Shown: positions 4,834 to 42,700 of the stretch, piece after piece | Layout: every line of letters begins with the position of its first letter | How positions within the stretch are numbered: the stretch's first letter is position 1 | Notes under the pieces: model-generated | What the model saw: the letters and a program-made list of their open reading frames with translations, nothing else | Told to the model about the DNA's origin: nothing | The model's database searches: none | Source: Chitinivibrionales bacterium | Lineage (GTDB): Bacteria; Fibrobacterota; Chitinivibrionia; Chitinivibrionales; JANQEN01 | Direction: 5' to 3' | DNA length: 64,000 nt | NCBI GenBank assembly: GCA_028278335.1 | Contig: JANQEN010000203.1 | Span: 107,950-171,949, forward strand | Position numbers and translations under genes: made by a program

Positions 4834-4844
4834 GGGAAAATAGT

Positions 4845-20462: not shown

Positions 20463-22829
20463 TTAGTAAACTAAATGTTCCGTTCGACGGATAATTTCAT
20501 TCTGTAAATTGACACCCAAGTTAATAAAATAGTCACTATAGCCGGCTACCCGGACAATCAAATTACGATAATCTTCGGGTTTTTCTTGCGCCTTACGCAG
20601 TGTCTCTGCGGTAACAACGTTAAACTGGATATGGTGACCTTCCATCCTGAAATAGGCTCTAATCAGGGAGGCTACCTTTTCAATTCCAGCTGGATCGTGT
20701 AGAATCATAGGAGTAAATTTCTGGTTTAAAAGTGTCCCCCCAGTTCGCACATGGTCAATCTTGCTTGCTGATTTAATAACCGCTGTAGGTCCTTTTCGAT
20801 CGGATCCCTGAACAGGCGAAATCCCTTCTGAGAGAGGTTCGTATGCTTTATGACCATCGGGCATAGCACCAATCACACTGCCAAAATAGACGTGGACGGT
20901 TGTGGGAAGAAGGTTTATCCTATGACACCCGCCTCGAGCATTGGGGACACCATCAATGGCATTATAGTAACTTTCAAATATTCGAGCTAAAATTGCATCG
21001 GCATAATCGTCATCATTACCATACTTAGGAGTATCATAGAGAAACTTTTCCCGTAATACTTCATTGTTCTCATAATTGGAACCTAAAATGGTTAACAGTT
21101 CATCTAAGGTAAGCAACTTTTTATCAAACACATTATAGCATACTGAGGTCAAAGCATCAGTTATGCTGCCTATACCAACTCCCTGAATGTAGGACGTGTT
21201 GTACCGTGCTCCTCCCCCATTATAATCTTTGCCATTGGCAATGCAATCTTTAGTGATTATTGACATAAAGGGGGCTGGAAGGTGTTTTGCCCAAAGTTTT
21301 TCAATTATCTTATTTCCCTTGATTTTAATATCGGTAAAATAATTGAGTTGTTTTTCAAAAGCATTATATAGTTCGCCAAAGGAACTTATTGTGCGCAGAT
21401 CACCTGATTGAATTCCTATTGTTTTACCAGTCCGTGGATCGGTCCCGTTATAAAGTGTCAACTCCAATATCTTCATAAGGTTAAAATAGCCCGTAAGAAT
21501 ATAGGCCTCTTTGCCGAAGGCTCCCGCCTCTACACAGCCGCTCGCACCTCCATTTCTTGCGTCAACAAGTGATTTACCTTGACGGGTTAACTCCTTGACA
21601 ATAGCGTCAGTATTAAAAATTGATGGCTGCCCAAAACCAGTTTTAATAATTTCCAGCACTCGCTGTAAAAATTCCTTAGGAGTGTTCTTGCTTATCTGCA
21701 CCATTGAACTGGGTTGTAAAATTCTCATCTCTTCAATAACATCTAAGATTAGGTAGGAAAGCTCATTGACCGCATCAGTACCATTCTCTTTTACTCCTCC
21801 CACATTTATCAAACAAAAATCAGTATAGGTATTGCTTTCTTCAGCGGTCACTCCAACTTTAGGTGGTGCTGGTTGGTTATTGAACTTTACCCAAAAAGAT
21901 TGTAACAGTTCCTTGGCAAAATCCTTAGAAATAGTACCCTTGTTTAGATCTTCTTGAAAGTAGGGGAAGAGATTTTGATCCAGCCTTCCTGGATTAAAAG
22001 AATCCCAGGTGTTTAACTCTGTAATCACTCCTAAATGTATAAACCAGTAATGTTGTAGGGCTTCCCACATAGTTCCCGGTGCATTGGCTGGAACACGCTG
22101 ACAATTTTTAGCTATTGTCAAGAGTTCATCTTTCCTCGCTGGATGAGATTCTTCTGCAGCCATTTTTTCTGCTAAGGTAGCATACCGATGGGCATAGTGA
22201 ATTATCGCATCTGCAGCGAATGACATAGCCAACAACTCTTCTCTCTTTTCAAACGCTTCTGGATCATTCTTAAAGTCAAGAGATTCAAGACTTTCTTGAA
22301 TCTCATCTTTGAAATCATTAAATCCCTTAAAGAAAATATGCTTACCACCTACAGTATGTCCAGGCGCCCGTTGTTCCATAAACTCAGTAAAGACACCCGC
22401 TTCATAGGCCTCTTTCCATTCAGGATCGACAGCTTCAAAAATTTTATCTCGAATCGTTTTACCTTCCCAGAAAGGATTAATATCATTTTGGACAATTCCT
22501 TGGGTCTCTTTTGAAACAGAAAAGGATATTTTTTCTCTGGAGTCAAGTATTTTTAAATCCTCTGTTGTGTGGACACAGATTTCAGGATAGGTTGGTGTGG
22601 CAGCTGGTTTTGGTCCGCGCTCGCCAACGATCAATTCGTAATCATCGATATAAAGCGTCTTGTTTTTTAGAATATATTCAAAAGCCTTTGCCCGCGCTAC
22701 AGGAATCGAGAGCCCCTTTGCACCATCCTGTTTATAAAACTCCGTTAATAGTTGAGCTCTTTCAATAGAAAGAGCGGGTTTTGCTGAAATACTCTGATCA
22801 CGTAATCTCTGTATTCGTGCACTCTTCAT
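20463..22829 (-). CDS. glycyl radical enzyme, dehydratase (PFL2) class; candidate trans-4-hydroxy-L-proline dehydratase (HypD-like)
   Basis: Glycyl-radical motif LIVRVAGYSDYF and Cys/Glu loop GASGCVEAG. Numbered from MKSAR (start 22829, 1 nt after the activase stop), F150/H158/D276/S332/F338/C432/E434/Y448/T643/G763 sit at a constant -2 offset from the HypD residues I recall (F152/H160/D278/S334/F340/C434/E436/Y450/T645/G765). The longer ORF start at 22868 would overlap the activase gene by 38 nt. Confidence 0.8.
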   Translation of the reverse strand: MKSARIQRLRDQSISAKPALSIERAQLLTEFYKQDGAKGLSIPVARAKAFEYILKNKTLYIDDYELIVGERGPKPAATPTYPEICVHTTEDLKILDSREKISFSVSKETQGIVQNDINPFWEGKTIRDKIFEAVDPEWKEAYEAGVFTEFMEQRAPGHTVGGKHIFFKGFNDFKDEIQESLESLDFKNDPEAFEKREELLAMSFAADAIIHYAHRYATLAEKMAAEESHPARKDELLTIAKNCQRVPANAPGTMWEALQHYWFIHLGVITELNTWDSFNPGRLDQNLFPYFQEDLNKGTISKDFAKELLQSFWVKFNNQPAPPKVGVTAEESNTYTDFCLINVGGVKENGTDAVNELSYLILDVIEEMRILQPSSMVQISKNTPKEFLQRVLEIIKTGFGQPSIFNTDAIVKELTRQGKSLVDARNGGASGCVEAGAFGKEAYILTGYFNLMKILELTLYNGTDPRTGKTIGIQSGDLRTISSFGELYNAFEKQLNYFTDIKIKGNKIIEKLWAKHLPAPFMSIITKDCIANGKDYNGGGARYNTSYIQGVGIGSITDALTSVCYNVFDKKLLTLDELLTILGSNYENNEVLREKFLYDTPKYGNDDDYADAILARIFESYYNAIDGVPNARGGCHRINLLPTTVHVYFGSVIGAMPDGHKAYEPLSEGISPVQGSDRKGPTAVIKSASKIDHVRTGGTLLNQKFTPMILHDPAGIEKVASLIRAYFRMEGHHIQFNVVTAETLRKAQEKPEDYRNLIVRVAGYSDYFINLGVNLQNEIIRRTEHLVY

Positions 22830-22830
22830 A

Positions 22831-23646
22831 TCATCCCCCAATCTGAATGGTATATCCAGCAGCTTCAAATTGCTCTTTCAGAGCATCAAGTTGGTTTTGT
22901 GTCGGTTCCAAAGGTTCTTTGTATTGGTACTCTCTATTGAGTCTTTGATATTTATCCTCACCCATACGAATATAGGGTAATAGATCAACCCGTTTAACAT
23001 GCTCAATCGTTTTTAAGAAAGAAATAGTCGACATCACATTATCATTGCTGTCTGTGATCCCTGGAACAACGGGTATGCGAATTATTATCTCTTTTGCTTT
23101 ATGGGAAATGGCTTTTAAGTTTTGTTGAATAACTTCATTTAAAACAAGTGTAAAACGTTTGTGGTCTTTCTGGTTAAAAAGTTTTATATCATAAAGAAAA
23201 AGATCTATCACATCGCACAAAGACTCGATCTGCTCTTTTGAACAATACCCAGATGTATCTAAGGCTGTATGAATTGCATCCTTCTTGCATTGCTTTGCAA
23301 GAGCATACAGGAATTCATACTGCATACACGGTTCTCCGCCAGAAAAGGTCACTCCCCCATCAGATTCTGCATAGAATATTCTATCCTTTTCAATCTCCAC
23401 CATAGCTTCATCAACAGAGTAGCTAATACCGACTTTTTCTTGCTGGGTAGACAGAGTCTGTTTATGCCCCCCTCTATTTACTTTGTCAATATACTCAATT
23501 TCTTGATTTTGACTTTCTGGGTTATGACACCACCAACAGCGCAAAGGGCACCCCTTAAAAAAAAGGGTCGTTCTAATTCCGGGTCCATCGTGAATAGCAA
23601 ATTTTTTTATATCAAAAAGGATTCCAGTTTTTTCCATGCCAATCAA
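22831..23646 (-). CDS. glycyl-radical enzyme activating protein (radical SAM), lacking the Cys-rich ferredoxin-like insert
   Basis: Motif GCPLRCWWCHNPE, then GGVTFSGGEP. The roughly 35 aa after the CX3CX2C motif contain no cysteine. Confidence 0.85.
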   Translation of the reverse strand: MIGMEKTGILFDIKKFAIHDGPGIRTTLFFKGCPLRCWWCHNPESQNQEIEYIDKVNRGGHKQTLSTQQEKVGISYSVDEAMVEIEKDRIFYAESDGGVTFSGGEPCMQYEFLYALAKQCKKDAIHTALDTSGYCSKEQIESLCDVIDLFLYDIKLFNQKDHKRFTLVLNEVIQQNLKAISHKAKEIIIRIPVVPGITDSNDNVMSTISFLKTIEHVKRVDLLPYIRMGEDKYQRLNREYQYKEPLEPTQNQLDALKEQFEAAGYTIQIGG

Positions 23647-23670: not shown

Positions 23671-23871
23671 CTATCCACCATGGGCTAAATGAAAAATGGT
23701 GATTGCAGCCTTATCAGGTACTGTATAGGTATCATAGTCATCTTGTGGCACCAATGTTTCATTGACCGTTACGGTGATTAGGGCATATTCGTAACGCATT
23801 GCTTTAAGCACATCTCGTACAGTCATACCTAAAAACCACTCCAGTGTATCTCTATTATTAATTGTCAACAT
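23671..23871 (-). CDS. ThiS/MoaD-family ubiquitin-like sulfur-carrier protein
   Basis: 66 aa from MLTINNRD... (ATG 1 nt after the ThiF-like stop), ending in the diagnostic C-terminal Gly-Gly (...FHLAHGG*). An alternative upstream start at 23895 would give 74 aa. Confidence 0.7.
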   Translation of the reverse strand: MLTINNRDTLEWFLGMTVRDVLKAMRYEYALITVTVNETLVPQDDYDTYTVPDKAAITIFHLAHGG

Positions 23872-23872
23872 A

Positions 23873-24484
23873 CTACGTTCCTTTACCGGTGACAATAAGC
23901 TCGATAGCTAAATTTGCTTGCATGGCAGCTGCCAAAGCCACTCGAGCAGAGCAGAGTCCAATTTCCATTGATGATTTCTCATCGCCGATAATATAGATCG
24001 CGCCTGATTTTCTAATCCCAATCGCCCCACTTCGTCCAAGACCGGCAATACCACTGGCACAAATTATTGGTTTTCCAGGAAAAGCTAGACACCATGATTC
24101 TATGAGCCATGATTTAGCTTCAGCTCGATCAAAGGCCTCAATGCAGAGTTGAGCAACCTTAAAATGGCTTGGCACGTTTTGTGGTGTAAGTTCCTCACAG
24201 TAGGACTCAATAATCACATTAGGATTTATATTATGAAGTTGATTTGATAAGGCATCGACTTTTTTTTTGCCAATATCAGCCTGAAAATAATGTTGCCTAT
24301 TTAAATTCGAGACCTCAACTTGATCAAAATCAATAATAATCAATTTTCCAACGCCAGCACGTACCAAAGCTACGGCAACATTTGATCCAAGTCCACCGCA
24401 ACCTGCAATAGCTATCGTTGCCTTCTGCAATTTTTCAAAAGAGCCAGGGACATTTCTTGTATAAATTGCTTCAATGTTGCTCAT
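23873..24484 (-). CDS. ThiF/MoeB/HesA-family E1-like adenylyltransferase (short, about 200-aa form)
   Basis: Nucleotide-binding IAGCGGLGSNVAVALVRAGVGKLIIIDFDQVEVSNLNRQ. Confidence 0.8.
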   Translation of the reverse strand: MSNIEAIYTRNVPGSFEKLQKATIAIAGCGGLGSNVAVALVRAGVGKLIIIDFDQVEVSNLNRQHYFQADIGKKKVDALSNQLHNINPNVIIESYCEELTPQNVPSHFKVAQLCIEAFDRAEAKSWLIESWCLAFPGKPIICASGIAGLGRSGAIGIRKSGAIYIIGDEKSSMEIGLCSARVALAAAMQANLAIELIVTGKGT

Positions 24485-24830
24485 GTTAAAACCTAGCCTA
24501 GTATTTGGTAGAAAATTTGTTGATTTGAAGAGATTACTCTCTTTATGCTACTTTCTCAAATTAAGAATAAAAAATGTTTATATATATAAATATATAATAA
24601 AACTCAAAAAAAAGATGTGTAATATATCACAACAACAAAAAAGCCCCAATGTCATTTACGATCATCCAATATATTATTCACTTACTTGTTTTATAATAAG
24701 GACTTATGGAACAGTTTACTGCACAAAATATCAACCTAATTAAATAAGAATGGGTTATTTCTCTAAAAAACCATTTCTTAAAAAGCTTATTAAGAGATTA
24801 TTATTACGTTTGGTAGTTAAAATTACGACA

Positions 24831-26828
24831 CTAATCCTGCGCATCTTTTGCAATGGCAACAAGCTCCGGTAGATCAATGCACAACTCTTTTAGCCGTTCT
24901 ATTTTTGGCACACCATTCTTTGTCCAACCGCGCCGAAGATAGGCTGCATCGGTCACTTTATGATACTGCTCATAGCGATAATCACGTAACAGAGCTAACT
25001 TCTCCTCAGTATTTTTATCTGTAATATCAACACCGACAATTTCCTTAAGCTGGGTATCATAGCGCTCCTGTCGTGATTCATATTCCTCGACAGTTACCGG
25101 TCCTACTGCACGAGCTGGTGGAATATCATCTTTTCGTGTTCCATAGCCAAGCATCAAGTTGATGATTCGTTGAAAATTATGTACCCGCGCTGATTGATCA
25201 AGCATTTTCTTTTCGTCAAGAGCAACACCGGTCATTCCTTCAAAGAATTTCCAATAATTCTCAACGTGCTCGGGAATCTTTGCTGCTTGTTGCGGCGGAT
25301 ATTTGCTGTTATCAGCAGGAGATATATCATTCCAGACAATTTTACATAATCCCATCAAACCAAACCAGGTTCTAAAAAGGGGAAAGTAGTATAGTGCCTC
25401 AGCTTTATCTTCAAAAGAGGGAATTTGATTGTTTACCATATCCATAAATATGAGCCAGGCTTCGTCATGTTGTGGCCCCTTGACAGCAAGGGTATATCCT
25501 GCTTGTTGAGCCAAAGACTCTTTACATACATATTCGGAATACTCCAATCCCTTAACTTCCATGCCAATATCTTGGAGAAAAGCTGGATCTGCACCAAGCT
25601 CATCAGCCCATTTGTTCTTGAGCCATCGCACACCCTGACCAACATCAACACCAAATCCTTTGCCTCGAGCCATTTCATGCAAGCACTCCAATGCCTCGGA
25701 TGTGGCACCAAAATTCAACGCTTTACCTCCGGTATCCTCCTTGGTGATCACGCCATTTTCATAGCACTCCATAACAAAAGCCATACAGGTTGAAAAGGAG
25801 ATCGTGTCAATTCCATAGGTGTCGCAATAAAAATTGAACTCCACAATAAAGTCCATATCAAAGCAGCCCATATTGGAGCCACCAGCCGCAGTTTCATATT
25901 CCGGTCCGTCAACACATACTTTGTGTCCCTTATAGGGGCCTGTTTTAAGCTCAAAGCCGTCGACTGCTTTGGCGCATGCCATGGAGCATCCAAACCAACA
26001 GGCATCAGAAGAACCTTGGGTGAAGTACTCTTTTTTAAGCACTTTCGAATCGATCTTCCAGGTCTCTTCATGCTTGCCAAATTTATGGTTACAAACTGGC
26101 AGAAGGTCGTAGGCATCCATAACCTCAACAATATTGGCAGTGCCAACTTCACGCATTCGACATTGCTGTTTATCTAAGGTGGCCATCTCCGCATTTACCT
26201 TCATACCACGGTTGCGAATCAGCTCGGGATCCTTGGGATTATTTAAATCGTCGATTATCTGTATTGCACCAGTAGGGCAAACATAGGCACAGGAGGTACA
26301 TCCCACACAGTGAGGATCGACATCATTGTAGGGCATGGTCATATGTCTTTTCATTCCCCGCCCGGAAAATTCCAAAATTCCCTGTTGAACAAACTCTTTG
26401 CAGGCCCGCACACAACGGCCACAAAGAATGCAAGCTTTGGAATTTTCATCGGTTATGTCACTGGCAAATTTCTTTGGATCCTCTGCACCACAGAGTTTTG
26501 CCACCTTTTGAATTGCCGGCACCTGAGGAAAGCGCCCCAGAAGCATCTCTGCAAGAATCTTACGATGGGACTTGACTGGTGCTGATTCGGTTGACACCTC
26601 GATCTCTTTACGAACCGGATAGTTGCACGCGGTCACCATCTCTTTGGTACCATCCACTTCAATTTCACACATACAGAGACGACAGCTGCCATTGGGTGTT
26701 AAATCCTTATGATTGCATAGTGTCGGCACGGCAAAGCCCGCATCACGGACAGCTTTGAGCAAAAAGGTGTCCTTAACAACAGTCACTTTTTTATCATTAA
26801 TAACAATGTCAATTTTTTTAGTAGTCAT
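24831..26828 (-). CDS. fusion protein: HydA/NuoG-like N-terminal FeS domain plus aldehyde:ferredoxin oxidoreductase domains 2-3 (AOR C-terminal half)
   Basis: The N-terminus has a [2Fe-2S] pattern (C38, C49, C52, C68), then CILCGRCVRAC and CVGCTSCAYVCPTGA. The C-terminal ~410 aa carry AOR motifs DACWFGCSMAC, GPEYET, YCDTYGIDTIS and FGLMGLCK. Confidence 0.8.
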   Translation of the reverse strand: MTTKKIDIVINDKKVTVVKDTFLLKAVRDAGFAVPTLCNHKDLTPNGSCRLCMCEIEVDGTKEMVTACNYPVRKEIEVSTESAPVKSHRKILAEMLLGRFPQVPAIQKVAKLCGAEDPKKFASDITDENSKACILCGRCVRACKEFVQQGILEFSGRGMKRHMTMPYNDVDPHCVGCTSCAYVCPTGAIQIIDDLNNPKDPELIRNRGMKVNAEMATLDKQQCRMREVGTANIVEVMDAYDLLPVCNHKFGKHEETWKIDSKVLKKEYFTQGSSDACWFGCSMACAKAVDGFELKTGPYKGHKVCVDGPEYETAAGGSNMGCFDMDFIVEFNFYCDTYGIDTISFSTCMAFVMECYENGVITKEDTGGKALNFGATSEALECLHEMARGKGFGVDVGQGVRWLKNKWADELGADPAFLQDIGMEVKGLEYSEYVCKESLAQQAGYTLAVKGPQHDEAWLIFMDMVNNQIPSFEDKAEALYYFPLFRTWFGLMGLCKIVWNDISPADNSKYPPQQAAKIPEHVENYWKFFEGMTGVALDEKKMLDQSARVHNFQRIINLMLGYGTRKDDIPPARAVGPVTVEEYESRQERYDTQLKEIVGVDITDKNTEEKLALLRDYRYEQYHKVTDAAYLRRGWTKNGVPKIERLKELCIDLPELVAIAKDAQD

Positions 26829-29509
26829 TAGTGCACCTCCACCGCATCAAAGTTGCAGGAATCAAGGCAGATACCGCATTGAATACAAATGTTTGAATCT
26901 AGGGTATGCTTTGTTTTTCGTTCTCCAGAAATGGCATTGACTGGACAGTTTTTTGCACAAACCGTACAACCGGTACAGTTATCATTTATTGTAAAAGAGA
27001 TTAACTCTTTACACACACCAGCAGGACAGGTTTTGTCAACAACATGTGCCTCACACTCCTTTTCAAAATGAGTAAGGACACTTAGAATAGGATTAGCTGC
27101 AGTTTTACCAAATTGGCAGAAACTTGTCTTTGCCATAGTTTGAGCAACTTCTTTTAACTGACCGATCATTTCTTTTCCGCCATGACCAGCAACAATCCTT
27201 GAAAAAATTCTATCAGCTGCAGCAAGCCCTTCTCTACAGGAGGTGCACTTACCACAGGATTCCTCTAAAAGAAACTGTACCTGCTTATGTGCCGCATCTA
27301 CCATACAGGTACGGTTATCCTTAACAGCAATAGCGCTTGCTCCCATGATCATACCAGCCTCCTTTAATGAATTGTAGTCGACCGGTGTGTCCAATTGTGA
27401 TGGTGGAACAAAACTACCAGAGGGCCCACCAATATGAAGTGCTTTGATTGTTCGCTTCTTGCTATTAATTCCTTGGCCCAGTTCCTCAATAATGTGACGA
27501 AGTGTTGTATCCTGTGAAACCTCAACAAGTCCAGAATATGTTACTGCCCCGGAAAGAGAGAGCACCTTCGTTACTTGAGCCTCATCTTTGTCAAAAAGCA
27601 AGGGGATTGATGCCCAGGTTTCAATATTGTTGACCAGTGTTGGTCGACCTTGCAGCCCCGATTCTGTGGCATGAATAAATTTTGCCTGTGGCTCACCAAC
27701 GCTCCCGGAAAGGGTTTGGAGTAATGCCGAAGACTCCCCTATAACAAAACCGCCAGCGCCTCTATGCAGGGAAAGGTCAAAGGAGAATGCCGAACCTAAG
27801 ATGTTCTTTCCTAAAAGTCCTTGATCATATAATGTATCAACAACCGCAGTAAACCGTTCTAACACGGGAAGGTGTTCATGTCTAAAGCTGACGATCCCCT
27901 CAGTGGCACCTACAGCATATGCCCCAATAAGCATGCCTTCAATCACCGAATAGGGAGAGGGCTCAATGATTGCCGAATTGCACACAACAATAGCAGGTTG
28001 CCCCTTCTCTTTGACAGCATCCAAACAGGCCTGCCATTTTTTTCCCGTGGCTACCCCACCACCACCGCGTCCGCGCAATCCTGACTGTTTTACTATGTCG
28101 ACGACCTCCTCTTTTTTATCCTGATTTAAGAGCTTTTTAAAGGTTGATAACTCAGCATCACCTTCGCGCATAACCTGGGGTTTGTCTATCCCGGCAACTT
28201 TTATCGAAATATCAGAAGCTTTTTTTGAGGTAGCCTTAGATTCAGAAAGAAGCTTTTCAACATTTTGTGCTTTAACAGATCCAATAAGCTCGTCATTAAT
28301 TTTTACTACCGGTGCGATTTCGCAAGCACCAAGGCAGGATGCTGCCTCCAGTGTATATTTTTTATCATCGGTGGTCTCGCCTGCTTTAATTCCCAAGACC
28401 CGTTCAAAGGAGTCTAAAATCCTACTTGCTCCCTTAGCTTGACAAGCAGCACCGGTGCAGACTTCAATTACCGTTTCGCCCTTTGGTTCTAAACTAAAAC
28501 AAGTGTAAAAAGTTGCAATACTATAAATTTTCGCTGTTGCAACACCGGTGTGTTTGCAAAGTAATTCTATGGCTGTTTTAGAGATATGGCGAAACTGTTT
28601 TTGAATATCGAGCATCATCTCCATAAGATTTGCTGCTTTTTCACCACGTTTTTTTATGATCGATTCAATCTTCTCTTTATCATTCACACAGGGTTGTACG
28701 GCAATAGTCTTGGGTGTAACTAGACGAGCCACCTTACTCTCTTCAATTCGCCAGGCTGGTGTAATGCCTCTATTTTTAAGTACAATTGCCTTGACCTTTT
28801 TATTCCGAAAGACCGTACCAATACCACCTCGTCCAGCCTGCTTCAAGCGGGCAACACCACGGCGCCAGTCCCAAAAGGAGAAGTTTAAAATGCCCATTCT
28901 CGCATGTTCTGCACCATGTCCGGCAGAGACGACCGCAATATTGCGCATATCAAGTTCATCGTCAGCATACATCTCTGTGAGCTCCTCAGCAACCACATGA
29001 GAATCAACACTCTCTTTGGGAGCTTTCTCAATGGTTACCTTTTTTGTTACTGCATCAATAAAGATGATAACATCTTCATTCGCTTTCCCAACTATCGTTA
29101 AAGCATCAAATCCAGTAAACTTTAAAAAGGGGCCAAAGTAGCCACCAACATTAGAGTCAATCACCAAGTTGGTTAAGGGTGAGATAGAGGTGACCAAGGT
29201 TTTTCCTGAACCAGGAAATGATGTAGTACCGCCCAAGGGACCAGAGGAGAAACAAATAGGGTTTTCTGGGCTTTCCCAGGTTGTTTTCTTTGAAATCTCT
29301 TGAAACATGAGCCAGAGATCAAATCCCTTGCCACCGACCCAGAGATCTTTCATCTGTTGTGTGACCGGCTGGATTGAAAAATCATTAGTCCCAAGATCAA
29401 TTCGCAACGTTCTGTTTGCATATCCCCCGTTAAGGGAAACAGTATCAAAGTCGAAGGAGCCGACTATCTGATGCGCTTTGTGCATCTCTAAAACAGACTG
29501 ACTTGGCAT
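26828..29509 (-). CDS. fusion protein: AOR N-terminal (pterin-base) domain plus NuoE/HydC-like [2Fe-2S] plus NuoF/HydB-like domain plus 2x[4Fe-4S] ferredoxin
   Basis: aa ~24-246: GGYANRTLRIDL, GPLGGTTSFPGSGKTLVTSISPLTN, AGRGGIGTVFRNKKVKAIVLKN (AFOR_N-like). aa ~345-400: CTGAACQAKG...CLGACEIAP. aa ~470-815: GLRGRGGGGVATGKKW, GAGGFVIGESSALL, ESCGKCTSCREG, CQFGKTAANP. C-terminus: CTGCTVCAKNCP and CIQCGICLDSC. The stop overlaps the next ATG (TAATG at 26828), with GGAGG 7 nt upstream. Confidence 0.8.
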   Translation of the reverse strand: MPSQSVLEMHKAHQIVGSFDFDTVSLNGGYANRTLRIDLGTNDFSIQPVTQQMKDLWVGGKGFDLWLMFQEISKKTTWESPENPICFSSGPLGGTTSFPGSGKTLVTSISPLTNLVIDSNVGGYFGPFLKFTGFDALTIVGKANEDVIIFIDAVTKKVTIEKAPKESVDSHVVAEELTEMYADDELDMRNIAVVSAGHGAEHARMGILNFSFWDWRRGVARLKQAGRGGIGTVFRNKKVKAIVLKNRGITPAWRIEESKVARLVTPKTIAVQPCVNDKEKIESIIKKRGEKAANLMEMMLDIQKQFRHISKTAIELLCKHTGVATAKIYSIATFYTCFSLEPKGETVIEVCTGAACQAKGASRILDSFERVLGIKAGETTDDKKYTLEAASCLGACEIAPVVKINDELIGSVKAQNVEKLLSESKATSKKASDISIKVAGIDKPQVMREGDAELSTFKKLLNQDKKEEVVDIVKQSGLRGRGGGGVATGKKWQACLDAVKEKGQPAIVVCNSAIIEPSPYSVIEGMLIGAYAVGATEGIVSFRHEHLPVLERFTAVVDTLYDQGLLGKNILGSAFSFDLSLHRGAGGFVIGESSALLQTLSGSVGEPQAKFIHATESGLQGRPTLVNNIETWASIPLLFDKDEAQVTKVLSLSGAVTYSGLVEVSQDTTLRHIIEELGQGINSKKRTIKALHIGGPSGSFVPPSQLDTPVDYNSLKEAGMIMGASAIAVKDNRTCMVDAAHKQVQFLLEESCGKCTSCREGLAAADRIFSRIVAGHGGKEMIGQLKEVAQTMAKTSFCQFGKTAANPILSVLTHFEKECEAHVVDKTCPAGVCKELISFTINDNCTGCTVCAKNCPVNAISGERKTKHTLDSNICIQCGICLDSCNFDAVEVH

Positions 29510-33941: not shown

Positions 33942-36900
33942 TTACTCATTTTTCTGTAGCTTTTGTCGATTTCTCATTATGTGTAACTCTTCCTGTATCT
34001 CCTTAATTTTCTTATCAAGGACATCATTCTTTATAAGCAATTTTTGGACATGCAAGCGTTCGTTTCTAATATCATTCTCCATAGCTTTAACAACTGATGT
34101 AAATTGGGTAATCGAATCAGTAACCATGGCCTCTGTTAACAATGGCTTCTTAGATGGAATAGAATCTCCTACTTGGACAGCTGTTTCCAGGGAAGTTGAA
34201 TCTATTGCACTTGAATCAACAGTTGTTTTTTGACTACTGCGAGCCGCTTTTGGCAAAGTCACCGCAGTGATAAAGCTTTGCGCAGTGTCAAGTAATGCAT
34301 AGAGTGCACAGGCGACCCCATGACGAGTTGAATGACTATCCACAATCTCTATGGCCAATGAATTATCGCCTCCAGTAAGAAGGGTTGCAATAGCAGAGAC
34401 ACTATCGATTCTCTTAGATTTACTCTTTTGTGTCGTATCGCTCAAGAGCAGTTTCTCATTCACGTATACCCTATACTTTCCTGTGCAGGCAATATAAAAG
34501 GAGGCTTCCCGTGGTACTCCATCTAAAAAGATATTAGTCCACATATAGAGTTTTGACGCATTGGGATCGCCCCAAATGACCATGGGCTTTCCAATAGTAA
34601 ATTCAGGAGATGTCCTTTTTGCCACAACCTGCACTGACTTCCACCCCGCGGTGTCAGGTTCCTGAGCATTCCAGGTAGGGATACTATCAGTACGATAAAT
34701 CCATTTATCATCGGATACTGAAACATGACCAAGATAGTAATCCTTGCCATAGGTTTCCGGGCTAAGTCTGGCCAGTCGCTCCATTATCGACTGATGCCAC
34801 TTGGTCTGAGTAAGTCCCTCTTTTTTGACAAGTTCCAGGGCATCCTCATACCCAAAAAGTGATTTGTCTTGTAGCTCAAAGGTCAAATCCTCAAATTGAA
34901 ATACATACTCCTCTCGTTCATCCTCATCCATATCTTCGGGTAAGTTTTCCGAAGCAATCAGAATCTCCTCGGCAAGTTTGTCAAAACCATTGGGAATAAG
35001 AAAATTAATTCTTCCAAAAAAGTTTAAACACTCCTCTTCTGTTTCGGGAAAAAGGGTAAGTTTTTTTAACTCCTTGGCAGAGGTAAGATAATAATCACGG
35101 GCAACCGTCATCAAAGGTTCTAAGGTCTCTAAAAGCTGCTTTTTATACTGTATTAAAAAGAGCGGTTGCTCCCTTATTTTATCCGGTATGGGTGCCTTTT
35201 TCATTATCGAGACAGCCTGTGTCATAAAGGTTCCAGCTTGTAAATAGTTATCCATAAGGTGGACCTTTGCAGAATCTATCCACTCTTGCTGTTCAGATGA
35301 TAAGGAGTCAAGCCCCTTTGCCAAGGTGATCACCTTTGTAAAGGGAGAAAAGGATTTCTTCATTAATTGTGCGCAGGTCAAATTGATGTCCCTTTGAGCA
35401 ACCGCAGCTTTAACCGGATCTAACCCTTTTAATCGCTGTTTTTCCCAGGAGAGGGCAAACTCTTCGTACATTTCACCAATTCTATAGGCCGCCTCAAACA
35501 TACGGGTACTTTTGTACTCTATGGTCCGCTTAAAAACCTTAACCGCTTGCAAAAGAAGTTCTGTTTTCTCCTTCTGGATGCTCTTTGCCTCCTCTGGTGT
35601 AACATTAAAACTTAAGGCAGAAAAGGCCTGTTGCTTCAACAGACCAGCCTTAAAAGCGGCCTCACCAGCGTAGTAATTATTTGCAGTACGTTTAGAGACT
35701 AACAACCGTTTATTGTGCGCTTCAGCTTGGTCAAAGCTCATCAGAGCATTAACTGTATCTTCCTCCTTTAAATAACAGACACCGATCTGAAAATAGGCTT
35801 CAACTGAATTTTCTGAGTTTGGATAGCGAGAGATATAGTTTTTATAGACCCGAATGGCCTTTTCGCAAAGCGAAGCTTTAGAATAGTAGTGTGCAGAGCG
35901 AAGAATCATCATCTCCACATCCTTTTCCCCTGGGTAAAGCTGTGTATACCGTTCATTAGCCTCGGCCATTTTTTCCGGCTTTCCCATCTTTTCATAGGAG
36001 AGACCCACATTAAAAAGAGCATCCTTGGCCTTATCCGAAGAGGGATAATTGGACACAATCAATTCGTACATACGAGCAGCTTCATCAAATTTTTTGATCT
36101 TCTCAAAATTTGTAGCAGCATTAAAGAGAGCGTCGGGAGCCAGTTTTGATTGTGGATATTTATCATACAGCTCATAGTACGTTTTACAAGCTTTTTTCCA
36201 GGCCTCAATCTTTTCAAAGGCCTCGGCACTATTAAAAAGTGTGATATCACCATACTCACTGCCAGGATACCTTCTGTCAATCTCTCGATATTCAAGCGCA
36301 GCTTCTTCATATGCCTTGGATGAAGCAAGTTGTTTAGCATAGAGAAAACGCGACTGAAGCAGCAGTTTAAAGGCTTCACTCTTTTGGAGCTCATCGGTCG
36401 CCTCCTTCCATACAACCTCAAATCCAGCGGAAGCCTTGGTCCAATTTTCCATGCCAAAATGACATTTTGCAATCAGCAGTCCTGCGTCTTGGTAACGCGG
36501 TGTTGTGGGTCCTCGCTTTCGAATATGTTCGTAGGCTTTAATGGCATTAGCAAACATCTTTCTATTATAATACACAGAACCCATGTTCAGCACTACATCA
36601 TCAAAGGACTCACCTTTAGGAAATAGGGTCAGGTAATTTTTCGCTGCTTCAATAACCTTAGTTGAAGCAACATCAAGCTTTTTAGTGAGGGTTGTTGAAT
36701 CTAGGGGCATCATCTTTTGTGCAATGGCAATAGCATTCAATGCGGCCTGTTCACATCGTTGAGATTCAACAGACTTAAGGGTACTAAACTGCATAAATTT
36801 TGCATAGGCAACCTTCTTCTTATACAACTTGGTATCAAGGATCACCGCCAAGTTCCAAAGCGCCTCTGCAGTGATTGGATGATCAGGATAGGCCTTTACT

Positions 36901-39764
36901 AAAAGGTCATAATGTTTTGCTGCCTTTCGATAGAGCTCTTGATTACCATCTTTTTCTGCATCGCGGAAATAGGCGTCACCAACAAATAACCCTGTTGCAA
37001 TGGCCAAGGAATCAATCTCAGCGACAGATTTGGGGTCGCTCTTTTGCAAAGATGTATGCCATTTACTGCCACGGGCATAACGCTTGAAAAAATCTATCCG
37101 TTCCTGCATTGCCTGGTTGTGATTCCCATTGGTCTCAAATATCTTAATCAAATTTTCCGAAGCATGGGGAGCAATTCGCGACTGACCATATTTTTCAACA
37201 ATACGCCGATATATCTTAATTGCTGCAGTATAATCGAGATCTTCTTCGCGCAGCTTTCCCATTCTTTTGAGTACTAATGCAGCATAATCCCTATTGCCAA
37301 CAAGGGATAGAAATTTCATTGCCTCATCAATTTTTCCTCCCTGCTCATCAAAGCTAATGGCAATGTAATCTACTGCTTCTTCGCGCATAAGTGGGTTGGT
37401 GATCTCCTCTTCTTCAGCGCGTAATACATCAAAGTCAAGATCAACCTTCTCCACGAGATATTTAAAAACAGCCAGCGCATCATCGTACAAATCCTGCATA
37501 TAGTAGCACCAACCCAAATGGTAAATGGCAAACACATACTGGGGATGATCGGGGTACTGCATCACCCGCCGATAAGCTTCTTCTGCAAGGGTATAGCCCT
37601 TGCCTTCCTGAATTTGGGGGTTGCTAAAATAGTATTGACCGACATTCATATTCGCTTCAACAAAGTATTCACTCTCTGGATAGTTAGTAATAAGTAAAGA
37701 GAACTCCTTAAGCGCCTTCTCCTCCAACCCTAACTTTTTAAGAGCCAAGCCCTTGTAAAAAAGGGCATCATCGGCAAGCCAATGATCTCCATAGTTTTCC
37801 GTGATGACAGAATACATTCGAATCGATTCGTCTAATTCATATTCTGGAAACTCCATAAAGGTGGTATCACCCTCTTCAATACTCTTTTCATACACCTCCA
37901 AGCGGCGATTGAAATCATCACTGGATTCATCATAATGCAACTCGGCAAGCCGGTAGAGTACCTGGGGTATATAATTGCTCCCTGGGTTGACATCAATAAA
38001 TATCTCCATATGGTCAATGATACGTGCCCGCTCCTCTTCAATGGCACTGACAAGTGACCGTCGGTCAATCTCATTAAAAAGGGGCACCACATCTATTGTC
38101 GTATCTGCTTTCACTGTTGAATCGGTAGCACTGGTATCACGTTTTTGTCGAGAGTATCGCGCCATCTCTTTGTTCATATTGTCAAGATCTTCCTTTCGTT
38201 CTAAATACCGAATAAAGGCAAGATCTAAATATTTAGCCTGGATCTCTTGATTAAACCGATCAGCTTGATTACCCCGTTGATTATAGTAGCTCATAATCTC
38301 AGTGTACTCTTCTTTCTTGCTCACTAGATTGTCTTGAATCGACTGGAGTTGTTCCTGTTGTGCCGAATAAGCAAGATATGCCAGAGAATCCTCTTTTCTC
38401 TTTCCCGGATGTAAGGTGTCAACAACAGATATGAGTGTATCTGGAGCTGGTAATGTATCAATTGCCAAGAGGGAATCTTCTAAACGGGCAATACCCTTGC
38501 GAAGCATTATAATATAGCGCTGTTCAGCAAGTCCACGGATGCCCGTTTGATAATCTTTTTGAGAAATGGCGCCAATATCATAGAGCACAGAACGACACTT
38601 TTTTTTAAGACTTTCCAGATCCTTGATATTTTTCTGAGCCTCCTTAAGAAGCTTTTTTGGCCCAATCTCTAAAACCCGATATTCTAAAAGACGCCATTGA
38701 CGAATCATCTCATAAATTCGAATAAGCTCTTCATTCACCTCAAAGGAGAGTCGAGCATTAATGTTCTGTTCCTTGATCATTCCCCGAAGTTGCGATGCCT
38801 TGGTCTTATTTCCCATCTCTTGATAGGTCTTTTCTAATATGGAGGCCATCTCAAAAAAGCGATCAGCACTATTTCCCTTGTTTACAAAGGGTCGTGTTAT
38901 ATCCCGAGCCTTTTCATATTCCTTTAATTCCAAATGGATACGAGCAAGCTTTACCTGTGCATAACTATAGCGAATACTGTTTTTACTGACACCTCTATAA
39001 AAAGTTACTGCTGTGGGGTATTGTTTCTTCACGAAATAGATATCTCCCATTATGGTATACACTTCCTGTTTCATCATCTCATCGGTTGCATTGAGACGGA
39101 TTTCATCGAGTATTAACAGGGCTTTGTCTGCTTTGCCCAGTTGAAGGAAGGAGAGTGCAGCAAGATACTGTCCTTGATAATATCGAGCTGAGGAGCGTGG
39201 GATTTTAAGAAGTAATACTCCGCCCTCACCATAACGTTCAAGCTTAAAGTACAGTTTACCAATGACATATAACACTGATGGATAGAGTGGGTGGGCGCGA
39301 TATACATTTTCGTATAATGTGTGGATGGTATCAGCAAGAGCGCCATTTCGTGTATTATAGGCATGCTGGAGCACCCGAAAATAGGCTGCAGGGATTTTAT
39401 CACTCCTTGGGAATCGATCAATGACATACCGATAAGCATTGACCGCCCGTTCAGTTAAATTGAGCTTTCGATAACACTCCCCTGCCATAAAGGTGATGAA
39501 ATCCATGCGCCCATCAGGCAAATTAAGCTTGAGCATATTTTCCAAAATAGCCAAAGCCTTATTATAATTTCCCTTTTTGTAAAAAGTAAGAGCATCTTTA
39601 TAATCATCGGCTGTGGTAATTTCAAAGAGATTAAGGGTGATCAGTTCCTCCTCCAAGGCATCCTCTAATACCCAATCCACCTCCTGATTCTGGGTAGAAC
39701 TATTTGCCCATAACACAATCAGCATCATGATGAGTACTAATGATGTTTTTACTATTTGCAACAT
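33942..39764 (-). CDS. giant (1940 aa) secreted TPR-repeat protein with a C-terminal jelly-roll-like domain and coiled-coil tail
   Basis: N-terminal hydrophobic signal, then dozens of TPR/YbgF-like repeats (…A.F..G..Y....Y..A...F..L...YP.S…). Near the C-terminus is a beta-rich segment (WKSVQVV...LYMWTNIFLDG...FYIACTGKYRVYVNEKLL), followed by a coiled coil (KKIKEIQEELHIMRNRQKLQKNE). Confidence 0.7.
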   Translation of the reverse strand: MLQIVKTSLVLIMMLIVLWANSSTQNQEVDWVLEDALEEELITLNLFEITTADDYKDALTFYKKGNYNKALAILENMLKLNLPDGRMDFITFMAGECYRKLNLTERAVNAYRYVIDRFPRSDKIPAAYFRVLQHAYNTRNGALADTIHTLYENVYRAHPLYPSVLYVIGKLYFKLERYGEGGVLLLKIPRSSARYYQGQYLAALSFLQLGKADKALLILDEIRLNATDEMMKQEVYTIMGDIYFVKKQYPTAVTFYRGVSKNSIRYSYAQVKLARIHLELKEYEKARDITRPFVNKGNSADRFFEMASILEKTYQEMGNKTKASQLRGMIKEQNINARLSFEVNEELIRIYEMIRQWRLLEYRVLEIGPKKLLKEAQKNIKDLESLKKKCRSVLYDIGAISQKDYQTGIRGLAEQRYIIMLRKGIARLEDSLLAIDTLPAPDTLISVVDTLHPGKRKEDSLAYLAYSAQQEQLQSIQDNLVSKKEEYTEIMSYYNQRGNQADRFNQEIQAKYLDLAFIRYLERKEDLDNMNKEMARYSRQKRDTSATDSTVKADTTIDVVPLFNEIDRRSLVSAIEEERARIIDHMEIFIDVNPGSNYIPQVLYRLAELHYDESSDDFNRRLEVYEKSIEEGDTTFMEFPEYELDESIRMYSVITENYGDHWLADDALFYKGLALKKLGLEEKALKEFSLLITNYPESEYFVEANMNVGQYYFSNPQIQEGKGYTLAEEAYRRVMQYPDHPQYVFAIYHLGWCYYMQDLYDDALAVFKYLVEKVDLDFDVLRAEEEEITNPLMREEAVDYIAISFDEQGGKIDEAMKFLSLVGNRDYAALVLKRMGKLREEDLDYTAAIKIYRRIVEKYGQSRIAPHASENLIKIFETNGNHNQAMQERIDFFKRYARGSKWHTSLQKSDPKSVAEIDSLAIATGLFVGDAYFRDAEKDGNQELYRKAAKHYDLLVKAYPDHPITAEALWNLAVILDTKLYKKKVAYAKFMQFSTLKSVESQRCEQAALNAIAIAQKMMPLDSTTLTKKLDVASTKVIEAAKNYLTLFPKGESFDDVVLNMGSVYYNRKMFANAIKAYEHIRKRGPTTPRYQDAGLLIAKCHFGMENWTKASAGFEVVWKEATDELQKSEAFKLLLQSRFLYAKQLASSKAYEEAALEYREIDRRYPGSEYGDITLFNSAEAFEKIEAWKKACKTYYELYDKYPQSKLAPDALFNAATNFEKIKKFDEAARMYELIVSNYPSSDKAKDALFNVGLSYEKMGKPEKMAEANERYTQLYPGEKDVEMMILRSAHYYSKASLCEKAIRVYKNYISRYPNSENSVEAYFQIGVCYLKEEDTVNALMSFDQAEAHNKRLLVSKRTANNYYAGEAAFKAGLLKQQAFSALSFNVTPEEAKSIQKEKTELLLQAVKVFKRTIEYKSTRMFEAAYRIGEMYEEFALSWEKQRLKGLDPVKAAVAQRDINLTCAQLMKKSFSPFTKVITLAKGLDSLSSEQQEWIDSAKVHLMDNYLQAGTFMTQAVSIMKKAPIPDKIREQPLFLIQYKKQLLETLEPLMTVARDYYLTSAKELKKLTLFPETEEECLNFFGRINFLIPNGFDKLAEEILIASENLPEDMDEDEREEYVFQFEDLTFELQDKSLFGYEDALELVKKEGLTQTKWHQSIMERLARLSPETYGKDYYLGHVSVSDDKWIYRTDSIPTWNAQEPDTAGWKSVQVVAKRTSPEFTIGKPMVIWGDPNASKLYMWTNIFLDGVPREASFYIACTGKYRVYVNEKLLLSDTTQKSKSKRIDSVSAIATLLTGGDNSLAIEIVDSHSTRHGVACALYALLDTAQSFITAVTLPKAARSSQKTTVDSSAIDSTSLETAVQVGDSIPSKKPLLTEAMVTDSITQFTSVVKAMENDIRNERLHVQKLLIKNDVLDKKIKEIQEELHIMRNRQKLQKNE

Positions 39765-42700
39765 CTAAATCCCACATCCTCCGAAGAGATCATCATACTA
39801 CTGGTAAAGAAAAAGCCACAGCGCGCTTTCTCCCCATATTTATAAGAACCGCCAATGATTTTTGGCTTTCCATTCTTTGGATCTATAACCCACTCCCATA
39901 CATTACCAATCATGTCATGAGTACCATAGGGTTCTTTACACTCGCTAAAGTTTCCTGAGCGAAACATTTTATCACCCTCGGTTGGACAACGCTCTTTATC
40001 ATACTGGCTTCCATAGGGATATTGCTCGGCCTGATATTTCTTACGGTCTTTTAGACTCTTGCCGCTACAGGCATATTGCCATTCCTCAACAGAGCAGAGA
40101 TGCTTGCCTTGATCGTAACAGTACATTTTGGCCCGAACCCAAGAAACAGCAATCCGGGGAGTCTCCTTTATCTTATTGGGCCATTCATAGGTGTCAATAC
40201 AGAAGGAGCTGTCACCCATCCGTGGGACAAAAACCATATTCTGGGGACAAGCCCCATACACAGCCACCTCTTTTTCAAACTGAGATGACTGTTTTTTTGG
40301 ATCCAAGACAGTTAATCGCGCAATATATTTACCAGCTTTGTGAAATGAATGATGTACTGTTGGAGTTCCCTTTTTCTTTGCATCAACCTTCCCATCGCCA
40401 TTAAAATCCCAATGATATTCAAGACTAGAGAGAGGACTCTCTTGATCTAATGTTGCCGAGGCATCAAATTGAATCGATTGCCCCACAGAGCCACCCTTTG
40501 GCGATAGGGTAAACTGTGGTGACGGTGGCAAGTCTATGAAATAGACAAAGGTGTCAATTTCTCCCCGATAGCCCGATGCGTCAACAACAAAGGCCATGAT
40601 AGTATCCGATGTAAGTAGGGTAATCGGTGTTGTGTAAATGTTCGACTTGAGTGATGGTTTTTTACCATTATGTTCATAATAAATTTGTGACTTCTCATCG
40701 TAAGTGCTAAAGGAGAGTGACAATATGCGGTTGTATATCTTTTTTTTGCTAGATGGGATCGTTGGCACTGCCCGGGGCTTGAATACGTCAAGTACTGATA
40801 TAGCACCTTGATTACCGGCAGCATCCTCTGCATAGAAGGCCAATTTCGCTTCACCACTGCGCAAAATACTTATCCGATCACGGGACCGTGTAAATTTGTT
40901 ACCGGCAATCTGGGTGGTATTGCTAAAGAAAGGACTTGTACCGTCCAGTGTATAATAGATCGACGCATTTTCACTACACTCAAAAAAGATTGAAACCGAA
41001 TCACCGACACCTTTTTTTACCGAGATTGTTGCTCGCGGTGCAGTCCAGTCAATCAGATACTGCAATCGCCGCAGAGGACTCTTAAAGCCGGTTGGTGACA
41101 GCGAGTAATACTCAAGTACATGGAGCCCCTCTTCATTCAGGAGGATTGTATCATGATAGCGTAAAAAGGTACTATCCGAGGCAAATCGCCAATAGATCTC
41201 ACCGGCCATATTGGTTGTAAACATTACCGGTACTGCGGCATTATACACTCCGCCCTCGGGCTGTACAAGAACCATGGGCTTTTGCAGATCATCCATAGTG
41301 ACAATATCACTGGCATTTCCCGCTCTGTCTACAGCAAAATAGCGCAGCTCCTGGTTCATACGGAGGGTTATTTCCTTTGTAAACTGAGGAGAGGATCGAG
41401 TCGGTTCAAGCTCTCCCACTTCATAGTAGATTCGGGCCTCTTCATTGGAAACCAACAACACGCTAAATTCATTTTCCTTAGTTTTACTCCGCTCAATGAT
41501 CGCCTTAACCTTGGGAGGATCAATATCAACAAAAAATTCCAATATCTTTTCCTCACTTCGATTATCAGCCTCATCAATGGCAACATAGCGAATCGTGGTC
41601 ACACCAATTTTTGAAATTATAACACCCTTCCGATAGACGATTGCTCGCTCATCGGGTTTGGTACCATCCTGGGTATAGAGTATGGTCACCGGTTCCGATG
41701 CAGAAAAGGTCAGCTTAAATCGCCTGTTGTACGTTCCTGACAAATGCGAGGAGGATACCGTTGGTGGTGTTCGATCGTACTTGCGCTCCCACACAAGAAG
41801 AGGTGATCGATTTTTTGCCTTATCCTCGGCCACCGCCCTTATCAACGCTTTACCTTTGTGTGGCACAACAATGGGTTCAGAATAGGTGTTCCATTCCTCA
41901 ACTTTAGCACGACGATCAAAGGTGTATAGAATGGTCGCATTCTCTTTAGTAAACAATGTGAGTGTATCGGCCTTTATTCCCTCTCTATGATTGTACCGTA
42001 CCCGTGGTGGTACTGTATCAATGATATAGGTTGCTTGATTGATCACTGATTCACTATTGTAATCATTGCGCGCAAAAAATCTAACCAGCACTAAACCATG
42101 AGGACAGGGCACTGGTCTAATATAGGGAGTAAACATGCGTGTCGGCATGGAAGGGTCAAAGGAGTAGTAAACCTTGGCTTTTTGTGAAGGCTTAAGGGAG
42201 ATTTTGACTGGGTAGTTGTATATACCAGGTTTTGGCCGAATTGCAATCTTGATCGAGGTAGTATCTACCATGTAAAACAGGGAGTCACTTCTGGTTCTAT
42301 TACCAGCTCGATCAACCGCACTTATATACCCAACAAAGCGCTGTGTGATGATGGTTGAATCGGTTATCTTCACCCGCTCTTTACCCACAGGATCTCGATG
42401 TCGAAACAATCGACAGGGTTCATTTGTATTTATGCGTAACACTACCGGCTTTCGATAAACTCCAGAGGGTGGATCAATAGAAAGGGTGGGAGGCTGCAAA
42501 TCCAACACATAAGCAACGGAATCAATTTTGGAACGGTTTCCGTAGATATCTTCTCCATAGTAATAGAGTATGGTTTTCCCTGGGTTTGAAATATTAATTC
42601 CCTGTTTAAAGGCCTTCATAGATTTGGATGAGTTAATACCAACCCAAAGTTGAGCATTCTCATTTGCGCTAAAAGAGACGTAAAAAGGTTTGCTGTGGAA

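Follow-up and report, generated by a model that had tools for sequence, protein, structure and literature searches.

A putative tungsten-type aldehyde oxidoreductase divided between two coupled genes and interleaved with Bfu-type electron-transfer domains

Introduction

Tungsten aldehyde oxidoreductases and bifurcating Bfu-type enzymes are each the subject of active research. To our knowledge, WorABCSL of Acetomicrobium mobile (Class IV WOR, 9MQX) is so far the sole solved enzyme that links tungsten aldehyde:ferredoxin oxidoreductases (AORs) and Bfu enzymes, its WOR pterin module being combined with BfuA-, BfuB- and BfuC-type modules. Here, a gene pair combining the same kinds of module was analyzed in a 64,000-nt stretch of the genome of a Chitinivibrionales bacterium (GenBank assembly GCA_028278335.1, contig JANQEN010000203.1, positions 107,950 to 171,949). 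This whole stretch is called the window, and coordinates are window positions unless another locus is named. From sequence comparison and modeling, the products of the two genes, A and B, probably form a heteromeric, pterin-dependent (tungsten-type) AOR whose catalytic WorL fold would be put together in trans.

The WorL subunit of WorABCSL is a single intact chain, which the polyferredoxin WorS wires to WorA at a stoichiometry of 1:3 (PMC12318220, PMC9304861); WorA carries the clusters A1, A2 and A4 without the His-ligated A3 (PMC12318220). The window pair resembles it in a BfuA part with A1, A2 and A4 and no A3, in C-terminal B3/B4 clusters and in nearby thiF and worX-like genes. Unlike WorABCSL, the pair has no WorS, AOR domains 2-3 sit directly on the BfuA N-domain and AOR domain 1 on BfuC-BfuB, the AOR part is of WOR clade 7 rather than clade 87, and the window copy is without B5 and without the loop that serves nicotinamide adenine dinucleotide (NAD) and flavin mononucleotide (FMN) binding in NuoF-like proteins (the NAD/FMN loop). 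In Type 1 Bfu enzymes (FeFe-HydABC), the catalytic domain is C-terminal on the BfuA N-terminal iron-sulfur (FeS) domain, with BfuB and BfuC as partners (PMC9304861). Gene B is built alike, but its BfuA chain carries two thirds of the AOR fold, the last third being on the BfuC-BfuB chain. AorABC of Aromatoleum aromaticum (Class III/N-type, 8C0Z) is a multi-subunit, NAD-linked tungsten enzyme with ThiS- and ThiF-like genes, and its AorB aligns with the joined halves of the window pair; AorB is intact, however, AorA is a polyferredoxin, the FAD subunit AorC is unrelated to NuoF, and there are no Bfu modules and no split. Intact clade-7 WORs share with the split pair the motifs CWxGCSMAC, GPEYE, CDTYGxD and KGPQHDE, an N-terminal extension and a downstream thiS-like gene, but are single chains of ~720 aa without Bfu-type domains.

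Results

Gene pair and domain composition

Two open reading frames (ORFs) were present on the minus strand where the original prediction had placed them. Gene A (26828..29509; 893 aa, ATG start, AAGGAGG 9 nt before the ATG) encodes AFOR_N, NuoE/BfuC-like, NuoF/BfuB-like and C-terminal 2x[4Fe-4S] domains, and gene B (24831..26828; 665 aa, ATG start) a BfuA/WorA-like N-terminal FeS domain and AOR domains 2-3. As predicted, gene A stops (TAA) where gene B starts (ATG): the two codons overlap at 26828 as TAATG, with one base in common and GGAGG 7 nt 5' of the ATG (GGAGGTGCACTAATG, 26826..26840, minus strand; read from the sequence and compared with related loci). This Shine-Dalgarno sequence is embedded in the conserved C-terminal codons ..AVEV of gene A. 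Because the coupling junction recurs across phyla (GTGGAGGTGxxxTAATG/TGATG in 21 of 45 related loci), obligatory co-translation of A and B is argued.

Domains were mapped with Pfam; all lie on the minus strand. In gene A, AFOR_N (AOR domain 1; PF02730/IPR013983, E 1.9e-47) covers residues 33-245 (28775..29413). It is followed by a thioredoxin-like [2Fe-2S] domain of NuoE/BfuC type (2Fe-2S_thioredx, residues 281-423, 28241..28669, E 1.5e-44), which is full-length and has the four Cys (CxxxxC...CxxxC) that are the C1 cluster ligands, and by an FMN-binding domain of NuoF/BfuB type (Complex1_51K, residues 473-636, 27602..28093, E 1.8e-20). NADH_4Fe-4S (residues 738-822, 27044..27298, E 1.9e-25) contains the B1 cluster motif SCGKCTSC...FCQFG, with the B2/Zn-site His/Cys ligands H-x5-C-x4-C just 3' of it; the B1 and B2 ligands align with those of WorB. 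The C-terminal 2x[4Fe-4S] ferredoxin domain (B3/B4; Fer4 dicluster, residues 842-891, 26837..26986) corresponds to the proposed ferredoxin-binding domain of BfuB (PMC12318220). In gene B, Fer2_4 [2Fe-2S] (A1; residues 4-82, 26583..26819, E 4.6e-13, aligned to WorA 9mqx_A) and a 2x[4Fe-4S] Fer4 dicluster (A2, A4; residues 129-190, 26259..26444) precede AFOR_C (AOR domains 2-3; PF01314/IPR001203, residues 210-649, 24882..26201, E 9.2e-86). Pfam found no AFOR_C on gene A, no AFOR_N on gene B and no PF10588 match, and hence no His-ligated A3 cluster domain, on gene B. The AOR halves are on separate ORFs with ~835 residues of Bfu-type domains between them. The domain set of the original prediction, with AFOR_N, NuoE/HydC, NuoF/HydB and 2x[4Fe-4S] in gene A and [2Fe-2S], 2x[4Fe-4S] and AFOR_C in gene B, was recovered at the positions proposed with E values far too low for chance matches, and the motifs quoted with it were all found (GGYANRTLRIDL, AGRGGIGTVFRNKKVKAIVLKN, CWFGCSMAC, GPEYET, YCDTYGIDTIS, GLMGLCK).

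With NCBIfam, gene A matched NuoF, NuoE and HoxE models, and gene B matched FeFe-hydrogenase A6, HoxU and NuoG N-terminal models. Public annotations of homologues are generic ('NAD(P)H-dependent oxidoreductase subunit E', 'AFOR N-terminal domain-containing protein', '(2Fe-2S)-binding protein').

The two halves as one AOR

Gene A residues 1-257 and gene B residues 200-665 were joined and compared with intact ~720-aa AOR-family proteins of the cultured Firmicutes Fervidicella metallireducens, Alkaliphilus transvaalensis and Anaerosolibacter carboniphilus. Identity was 57-60% over ~717 positions with a gap-free junction, and the end-to-end alignment also covered the unusual N-terminal extension of the intact relatives. 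The Fervidicella protein A0A017RRV1 (same contig as locus L064) is assigned to WOR clade 7 in the 2026 classification (PMC13328260). The joined halves were collinear with residues 6-460 of the P. furiosus AOR (PfAOR, 1aor; E 3.7e-44). Pfam, the 1aor alignment and the gap-free join bore out a split at the boundary of AOR domains 1 and 2, as had been claimed.

In the alignment to 1aor, AFOR_N of gene A keeps the equivalent of Asn93 and the AGRGG motif, with Lys at Arg76 and Arg182. Gene B keeps the ligands Cys288/291/295 as CWFGCSMAC, with a one-residue insertion, and the first pterin motif D338xxGxD343 as DTYGID; the fourth [4Fe-4S] Cys (PfAOR Cys494) is supplied by GLMGLC, as judged from the 8c0z alignment. 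Equivalents of Thr243, Glu313, Tyr427 and His448, which are hallmarks of aldehyde-oxidizing WORs (PMC13328260), are all kept in gene B. GPEYE and KGPQHDE were unchanged in 120 homologues, and CWxGCSMAC, KGPQHDE and GLxGLC are common to split and intact forms. An AlphaFold2 (AF2) model of the joined halves, made from an alignment of intact AORs and biased by it toward the intact fold, reached a predicted local distance difference test score (pLDDT) of 92.7 and a predicted template-modeling (TM) score of 0.94, and superposed on the solved WOR large subunits 1b25, 9g7j, 1aor and 9mqx_D with target-normalized TM scores of 0.88-0.90; single-sequence AF2 gave a pLDDT of 33 only. Alignment and model together indicate that the two AOR pieces are parts of one enzyme and make up one AOR fold.

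Several observations weigh against a heteromeric AOR. The second pterin motif reads GLMGLC, with Gly for Asp489, and PfAOR Lys450 is replaced by Glu in the joined halves. Both changes are also found in the intact clade-7 relatives, so these oddities are taken as clade traits and not as decay. As the AF2 alignment consisted of intact AORs, the model indicates that the halves fit one fold and does not thereby prove a heteromer. Heteromer formation, electron path, metal, substrate class, reaction direction and loss of NAD coupling are all inferred from the sequence comparisons.

The substrate could be other than a simple aldehyde, and the WOR module might catalyze another reaction, as does BamB, which reduces an aromatic ring. 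The module is ~120 residues longer than PfAOR and has the unusual motifs C-x3-C-x3-C and QHDE, the latter after the catalytic His. In the WOR review, a defined enzyme role is given for only 5 of 92 WOR clades, and no characterized clade-7 member was found there (PMC13328260). All four hallmark residues of aldehyde oxidizers are kept, however, and another substrate is considered unlikely.

Interleaved Bfu-type module

The solved structure that best matched the NuoF-like part of gene A was WorB (9mqx_B, 1.7e-117), just before bifurcating HydB and NfnB, and residues 5-194 of gene B aligned best to residues 4-188 of WorA (9mqx_A, E 5.5e-36); the BfuA N-domain of gene B contains A1, A2 and A4. On the DNA, the order is AOR domain 1 - [BfuC - BfuB | BfuA N-domain] - AOR domains 2-3, as if a worCBA cassette had entered the linker between domains 1 and 2 of a clade-7 worL and had kept its B/A gene boundary. 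No WorS-type polyferredoxin gene was found in the window operon or in three related loci (L001-L003).

Distribution and layouts of the split family

The best 120 homologues of each gene were examined. All 120 for gene A combine AFOR_N, NuoE and NuoF, and all 120 for gene B are without AFOR_N (70-77% identity to gene B). A scan with gene B over one genome per GTDB species gave at least 596 relatives, from which 80 loci were kept, 54 of them split and 26 intact and clade-7-like. With three more found through gene-A homologues (L001-L003), 57 split loci were available. They span about 20 phyla, and many of the hosts are uncultured anaerobes from little-studied phyla. The hosts fall in Fibrobacteraceae/Chitinispirillaceae, Krumholzibacteriota, Cloacimonadota, Aminicenantes, Eisenbacteria, Sumerlaeota, Myxococcota, Bdellovibrionales (Bdellovibrionota), Melioribacteraceae (Ignavibacteriota), Elusimicrobia, Coatesbacteria, Armatimonadota, Bacteroidota, Synergistia and Bacillota, plus Thermoplasmatales archaea. 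The survey for the same split that the original prediction had proposed thus found it well beyond the window.

Across the split loci, BfuA_N was always fused to AFOR_C and AFOR_N was always encoded apart from them, upstream, and the whole array was in one ORF in none of the 57. Four genes (AFOR_N / NuoE / NuoF-Fer4 / BfuA_N-AFOR_C) were found in 3 loci and three genes (AFOR_N-NuoE / NuoF-Fer4 / BfuA_N-AFOR_C) in 18. Two-gene layouts had a long gene A of ~1065 aa (11 loci), an intermediate one of ~990 aa (1 locus, L023) or a short one of ~900 aa (5 loci and the window). The C-terminal ferredoxin was absent from 4 loci, AFOR_N stood alone (L043) or with a B1 remnant only (L041) in 2, the upstream gene was truncated by the contig end in 12, and the operon was fragmented by frameshifts in 1 (L056). 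Identities among related loci were 60-78% for AFOR_N and 55-79% for AFOR_C, with invariant catalytic motifs. By these comparisons, the window pair is a member of a large conserved family with several layouts and not an oddity of one genome. In a neighbor-joining tree of AFOR_C, split and intact forms did not seem to separate into two clean clades; the tree, built from distances with a midpoint root and no outgroup, is too crude to count split or refusion events.

An unusual architecture of this kind might come from an assembly chimera or from a recent pseudogenizing disruption, and the operon of L056 (a Krumholzibacteria metagenome-assembled genome, MAG) does lie in many short frameshifted ORFs. 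Both window ORFs are intact, however, the same layout recurs in 57 loci from independent assemblies and about 20 phyla, and relatives share both the invariant catalytic motifs and the coupling junction. On these comparative data from the 57 split loci, the misassembly or pseudogene reading was rejected as extremely improbable. No other of the 57 loci is broken up in this way; L056 itself is a true pseudogene or else the product of a poor (long-read?) assembly.

Further observations were made at individual loci. Molybdenum cofactor (Moco) biosynthesis and molybdate/tungstate-type ABC transporter genes lie upstream of the split operon in L001. In L002 (1-3154 of that locus, Krumholzibacteria), the opposite strand immediately upstream of the split AOR operon carries a NuoE/NuoF-type gene and an apparent formate-dehydrogenase-like molybdopterin subunit that is itself divided into two genes of 353 aa (FeS and Molybdop_Fe4S4) and 540 aa (Molybdopterin and Molydop_binding). 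If so, two split pterin enzymes would be neighbors there. The Thermoplasmatales MAGs L054 (1763-7088 of that locus) and L055 have the three-gene split form followed by thiF and thiS, at ~52% identity. If the binning is right, the presence of the split enzyme in archaeal MAGs implies inter-domain transfer.

The window copy as a short form

Complex1_51K matched the window protein weakly, with 73.8 bits; long-form relatives reach 152. Two thioredoxin-like [2Fe-2S] stretches (C1 and B5) are present in the long forms; in the window the B5 [2Fe-2S] domain of BfuB is absent, with a single 2Fe-2S_thioredx stretch and a linker (residues 424-472) that is free of Cys. Alignment to canonical relatives placed an 11-residue deletion at 27971..27982 (minus strand) in the NAD/FMN loop, which in complex I NuoF supplies acidic residues that contact FMN and NADH. 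The window loop reads VVCN-SA-IIEPSP, and the deletion is common to the window and 13 close relatives, with VVCNSAIIEPSP as the resulting loop. On A. mobile HydB (7t2r_B), the deletion covers A202 and M204, two residues that bifurcating BfuB proteins keep and non-bifurcating homologues do not have (PMC9304861); F182 of the same paper was not mappable onto the 7t2r_B numbering and was not used. The canonical loop was kept in 89 of 120 fused homologues. Deletions of 4, 7 or 8 residues were found at the same loop in other lineages (31 of the 120 fused homologues; 16 of 43 evaluable loci), and the differing deletions at one site suggest repeated loss.

Of the features that define Bfu enzymes, the window copy is without B5 and the NAD/FMN loop. 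The original prediction had the two chains rebuild the subunit set of a HydABC-type module; the kinship stood, with WorB and WorA as the best solved relatives, and the completeness did not. Because B5 is absent and 11 loop residues are deleted, a working flavin/NAD site is doubtful in the window. Its long-form relatives, by contrast, have a complete predicted flavin/NAD site.

Domain conservation was expressed as mean pairwise identity within the short and canonical classes, matched for AFOR_N divergence (0.74 vs 0.72). For the NuoE, FMN, SLBB and B1 domains, the short class had identities of 0.51-0.57 and the canonical class of 0.70-0.81, which indicates that the Bfu part of the short class is under relaxed constraint. 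The balance tips slightly toward a window enzyme that is linked to ferredoxin and no longer couples to NAD+. The short class, on the other hand, keeps GRGGGG, GESSAL, NIETWA, all B1, B2, B3, B4 and C1 cysteines and the B2/Zn His; these conserved motifs and ligands argue that the Bfu module is not decaying freely, and the short class may yet bind FMN and retain a modified coupling to NAD.

The same conserved motifs and ligands would fit a fully bifurcating Wor-Bfu in which NAD+ and ferredoxin are co-reduced and the loop deletion and B5 loss are tolerated. The nearest solved relatives are bifurcating enzymes, and B5 lies in a separate N-terminal domain to which the available portions of the two structural and classification papers give no defined bifurcation step (PMC12318220, PMC9304861). 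The deletion, however, removes the equivalents of the Bfu-specific A202 and M204 (PMC9304861), the Complex1_51K score drops by half, the Bfu domains have a clearly higher rate of change than those of canonical forms, and sister lineages lack the FMN domain altogether. Full bifurcation by the window enzyme is judged rather unlikely.

Graded loss of the Bfu module with the split AOR retained was observed in L024, L031, L041 and L043. L024 (2686-4965 of that locus) has AFOR_N-NuoE-SLBB-B1 with the FMN domain lost, and L041 (3261-4820 of that locus) has AFOR_N and a B1 remnant only. In L043 (Coatesbacteria; 4177-4983 of that locus), a stand-alone 269-aa AFOR_N lies beside BfuA_N-AFOR_C, and no NuoE- or NuoF-like sequence was detected in the 12-kb locus.

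Genomic surroundings

The operon order is gene A - gene B - thiF - thiS. The ThiF-family adenylyltransferase (23873..24484, minus strand; NF006395, 225 bits over a cutoff of 159) is found downstream in most loci related to the window pair. The small ThiS/MoaD-like (WorX-like) protein with a Gly-Gly end (23671..23895, minus strand; TIGR01683, 39.8 bits over a cutoff of 37.45) probably has its true start at an internal ATG. Genes of ThiF/ThiS type are usual partners in WOR gene clusters (PMC13328260). The spacer between gene B and thiF (24485-24830) is 346 nt long and strongly AT-rich and contains promoter-like hexamers as well as a GGGGCTTTTTTG stretch; the distance from the gene B equivalent to thiF is ~20-150 nt in most related loci. 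The long AT-rich spacer and its hexamers suggest that thiF-thiS(-hypD) may form a separate transcription unit in the window. An Rfam scan found no Moco riboswitch and no other RNA near the operon.

Directly 3' of thiS, at 20463-23646 (minus strand), are genes for the glycyl-radical trans-4-hydroxy-L-proline dehydratase HypD (1264.6 bits, cutoff 1100) and for the activase of HypD. HypD yields pyrroline-5-carboxylate, which is in equilibrium with the aldehyde glutamate semialdehyde, and a metabolic connection with the AOR is therefore conceivable; hypD was adjacent to the split operon in 0 of 3 related loci inspected (L001-L003).

The physiological direction could also be the reverse, with the enzyme acting as a carboxylic acid reductase that uses reduced ferredoxin (with or without NADH) to make aldehydes, a role that has been proposed for the AOR of acetogens. 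AOR reactions are reversible, reverse use is documented in C. autoethanogenum (PMC12727526), and no sequence feature fixes the direction. The operon and its neighborhood, however, contain no alcohol dehydrogenase or other aldehyde sink, and the hosts look like fermenting anaerobes that degrade amino acids or polymers. Reverse operation is regarded as improbable.

The other genes near the operon are of the housekeeping kind expected in an anaerobe and encode the anaerobic ribonucleotide reductase activase NrdG, Rho, enzymes of purine and histidine metabolism and large tetratricopeptide-repeat (TPR) proteins. Three very large consecutive genes at 33942-44934 (minus strand) encode proteins of 1940, 1024 and 703 aa. 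The 703-aa protein is TPR-rich by Pfam; from the translations alone, the 1940-aa protein is TPR-like and the 1024-aa protein has a Cys-rich end that resembles a sulfatase-modifying-factor/FGE-type domain. At 50696-53145 (plus strand), a 567-aa fusion of a NifB/MoaA-like radical-SAM domain and a ModA-type molybdate/tungstate-binding (SBP_bac_11) domain is followed by a NapH/NosR-like Fer4_5 membrane ferredoxin; the fusion might be linked to metal-cofactor handling. GC content is 0.31-0.37 at 45494-49614 and 46000-54000 and about 0.40-0.44 elsewhere in the window. Four consecutive minus-strand ORFs in this low-GC region (392, 304, 237 and 208 aa) had no Pfam match, and the region may be a foreign or fast-evolving island. 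C-terminal sorting domains of the type IX secretion system type (CHU_C, Por_Secre_tail) were found at 9837-11564 and 53445-55970; together with the nearest homologues, they indicate a host of the FCB group that may be Chitinispirillia-like.

Discussion

In the proposed heteromer, chain A would supply AOR domain 1 fused to BfuC and BfuB, and chain B, which resembles a Type-1 BfuA with AOR domains 2-3 as its catalytic domain, would supply the rest of the fold, so that the active site would lie at the interchain interface. Electrons would pass from the aldehyde to the W-bispterin, the AOR [4Fe-4S] cluster, A4, A2, A1 and B1 and into the BfuBC core, and would leave to ferredoxin at the C-terminal B3/B4 clusters. 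A WorS 'nanowire' would not be required, and a 1:1 stoichiometry would be fixed by translational coupling. In canonical long forms, electrons would also leave to NAD+ at the FMN, a bifurcation as in WorABCSL, which is predicted for them because their Bfu feature set is complete. If the short form of the window has lost NAD coupling, its remaining Bfu part would act as an internal FeS wire on which ferredoxin can dock.

A trans-assembled site could also be a device in its own right and more than a leftover of gene insertion. In the Bfu cycle, the BfuC [2Fe-2S] domain must swing. With AOR domain 1 tethered to BfuC and domains 2-3 to BfuA, redox- or nucleotide-driven motions of the Bfu core might gate the substrate or admit the cofactor by opening and closing the pterin site, and would thereby couple catalysis mechanically to bifurcation. 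This idea is very speculative and its odds are put as low. If it were true, the series from complete through loop-deleted and FMN-less forms to forms with no Bfu module would in addition be a dissection by nature of the Bfu elements that are needed.

The premise of the original prediction that known NAD-linked WORs have an intact catalytic subunit agrees with PMC13328260 and PMC12318220. No description or test of a split AOR, or of an enzyme with a detached AOR domain 1, was found in the literature searched. In the 2022 Bfu classification, Wor-Bfu enzymes appear only as Type 2 with extra SL subunits, and no Type 1 Wor-Bfu is given (PMC9304861). The split pair is apparently a widespread and undescribed Type-1-like Wor-Bfu, with a catalytic subunit that would be assembled in trans; the window copy is one of its derived short forms. 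WOR censuses collected WorL by IPR013983 and IPR001203 on one protein (PMC13328260). Because both domains were required in one protein, the split family would have been excluded, and WOR and Bfu diversity would be under-counted.

The split family would be a second and architecturally different WOR-Bfu link, with no nanowire, a 1:1 stoichiometry and a pterin site at a subunit interface. Its series of decaying Bfu modules would provide natural variants for asking which elements (B5, the NAD loop, the FMN domain) bifurcation needs.

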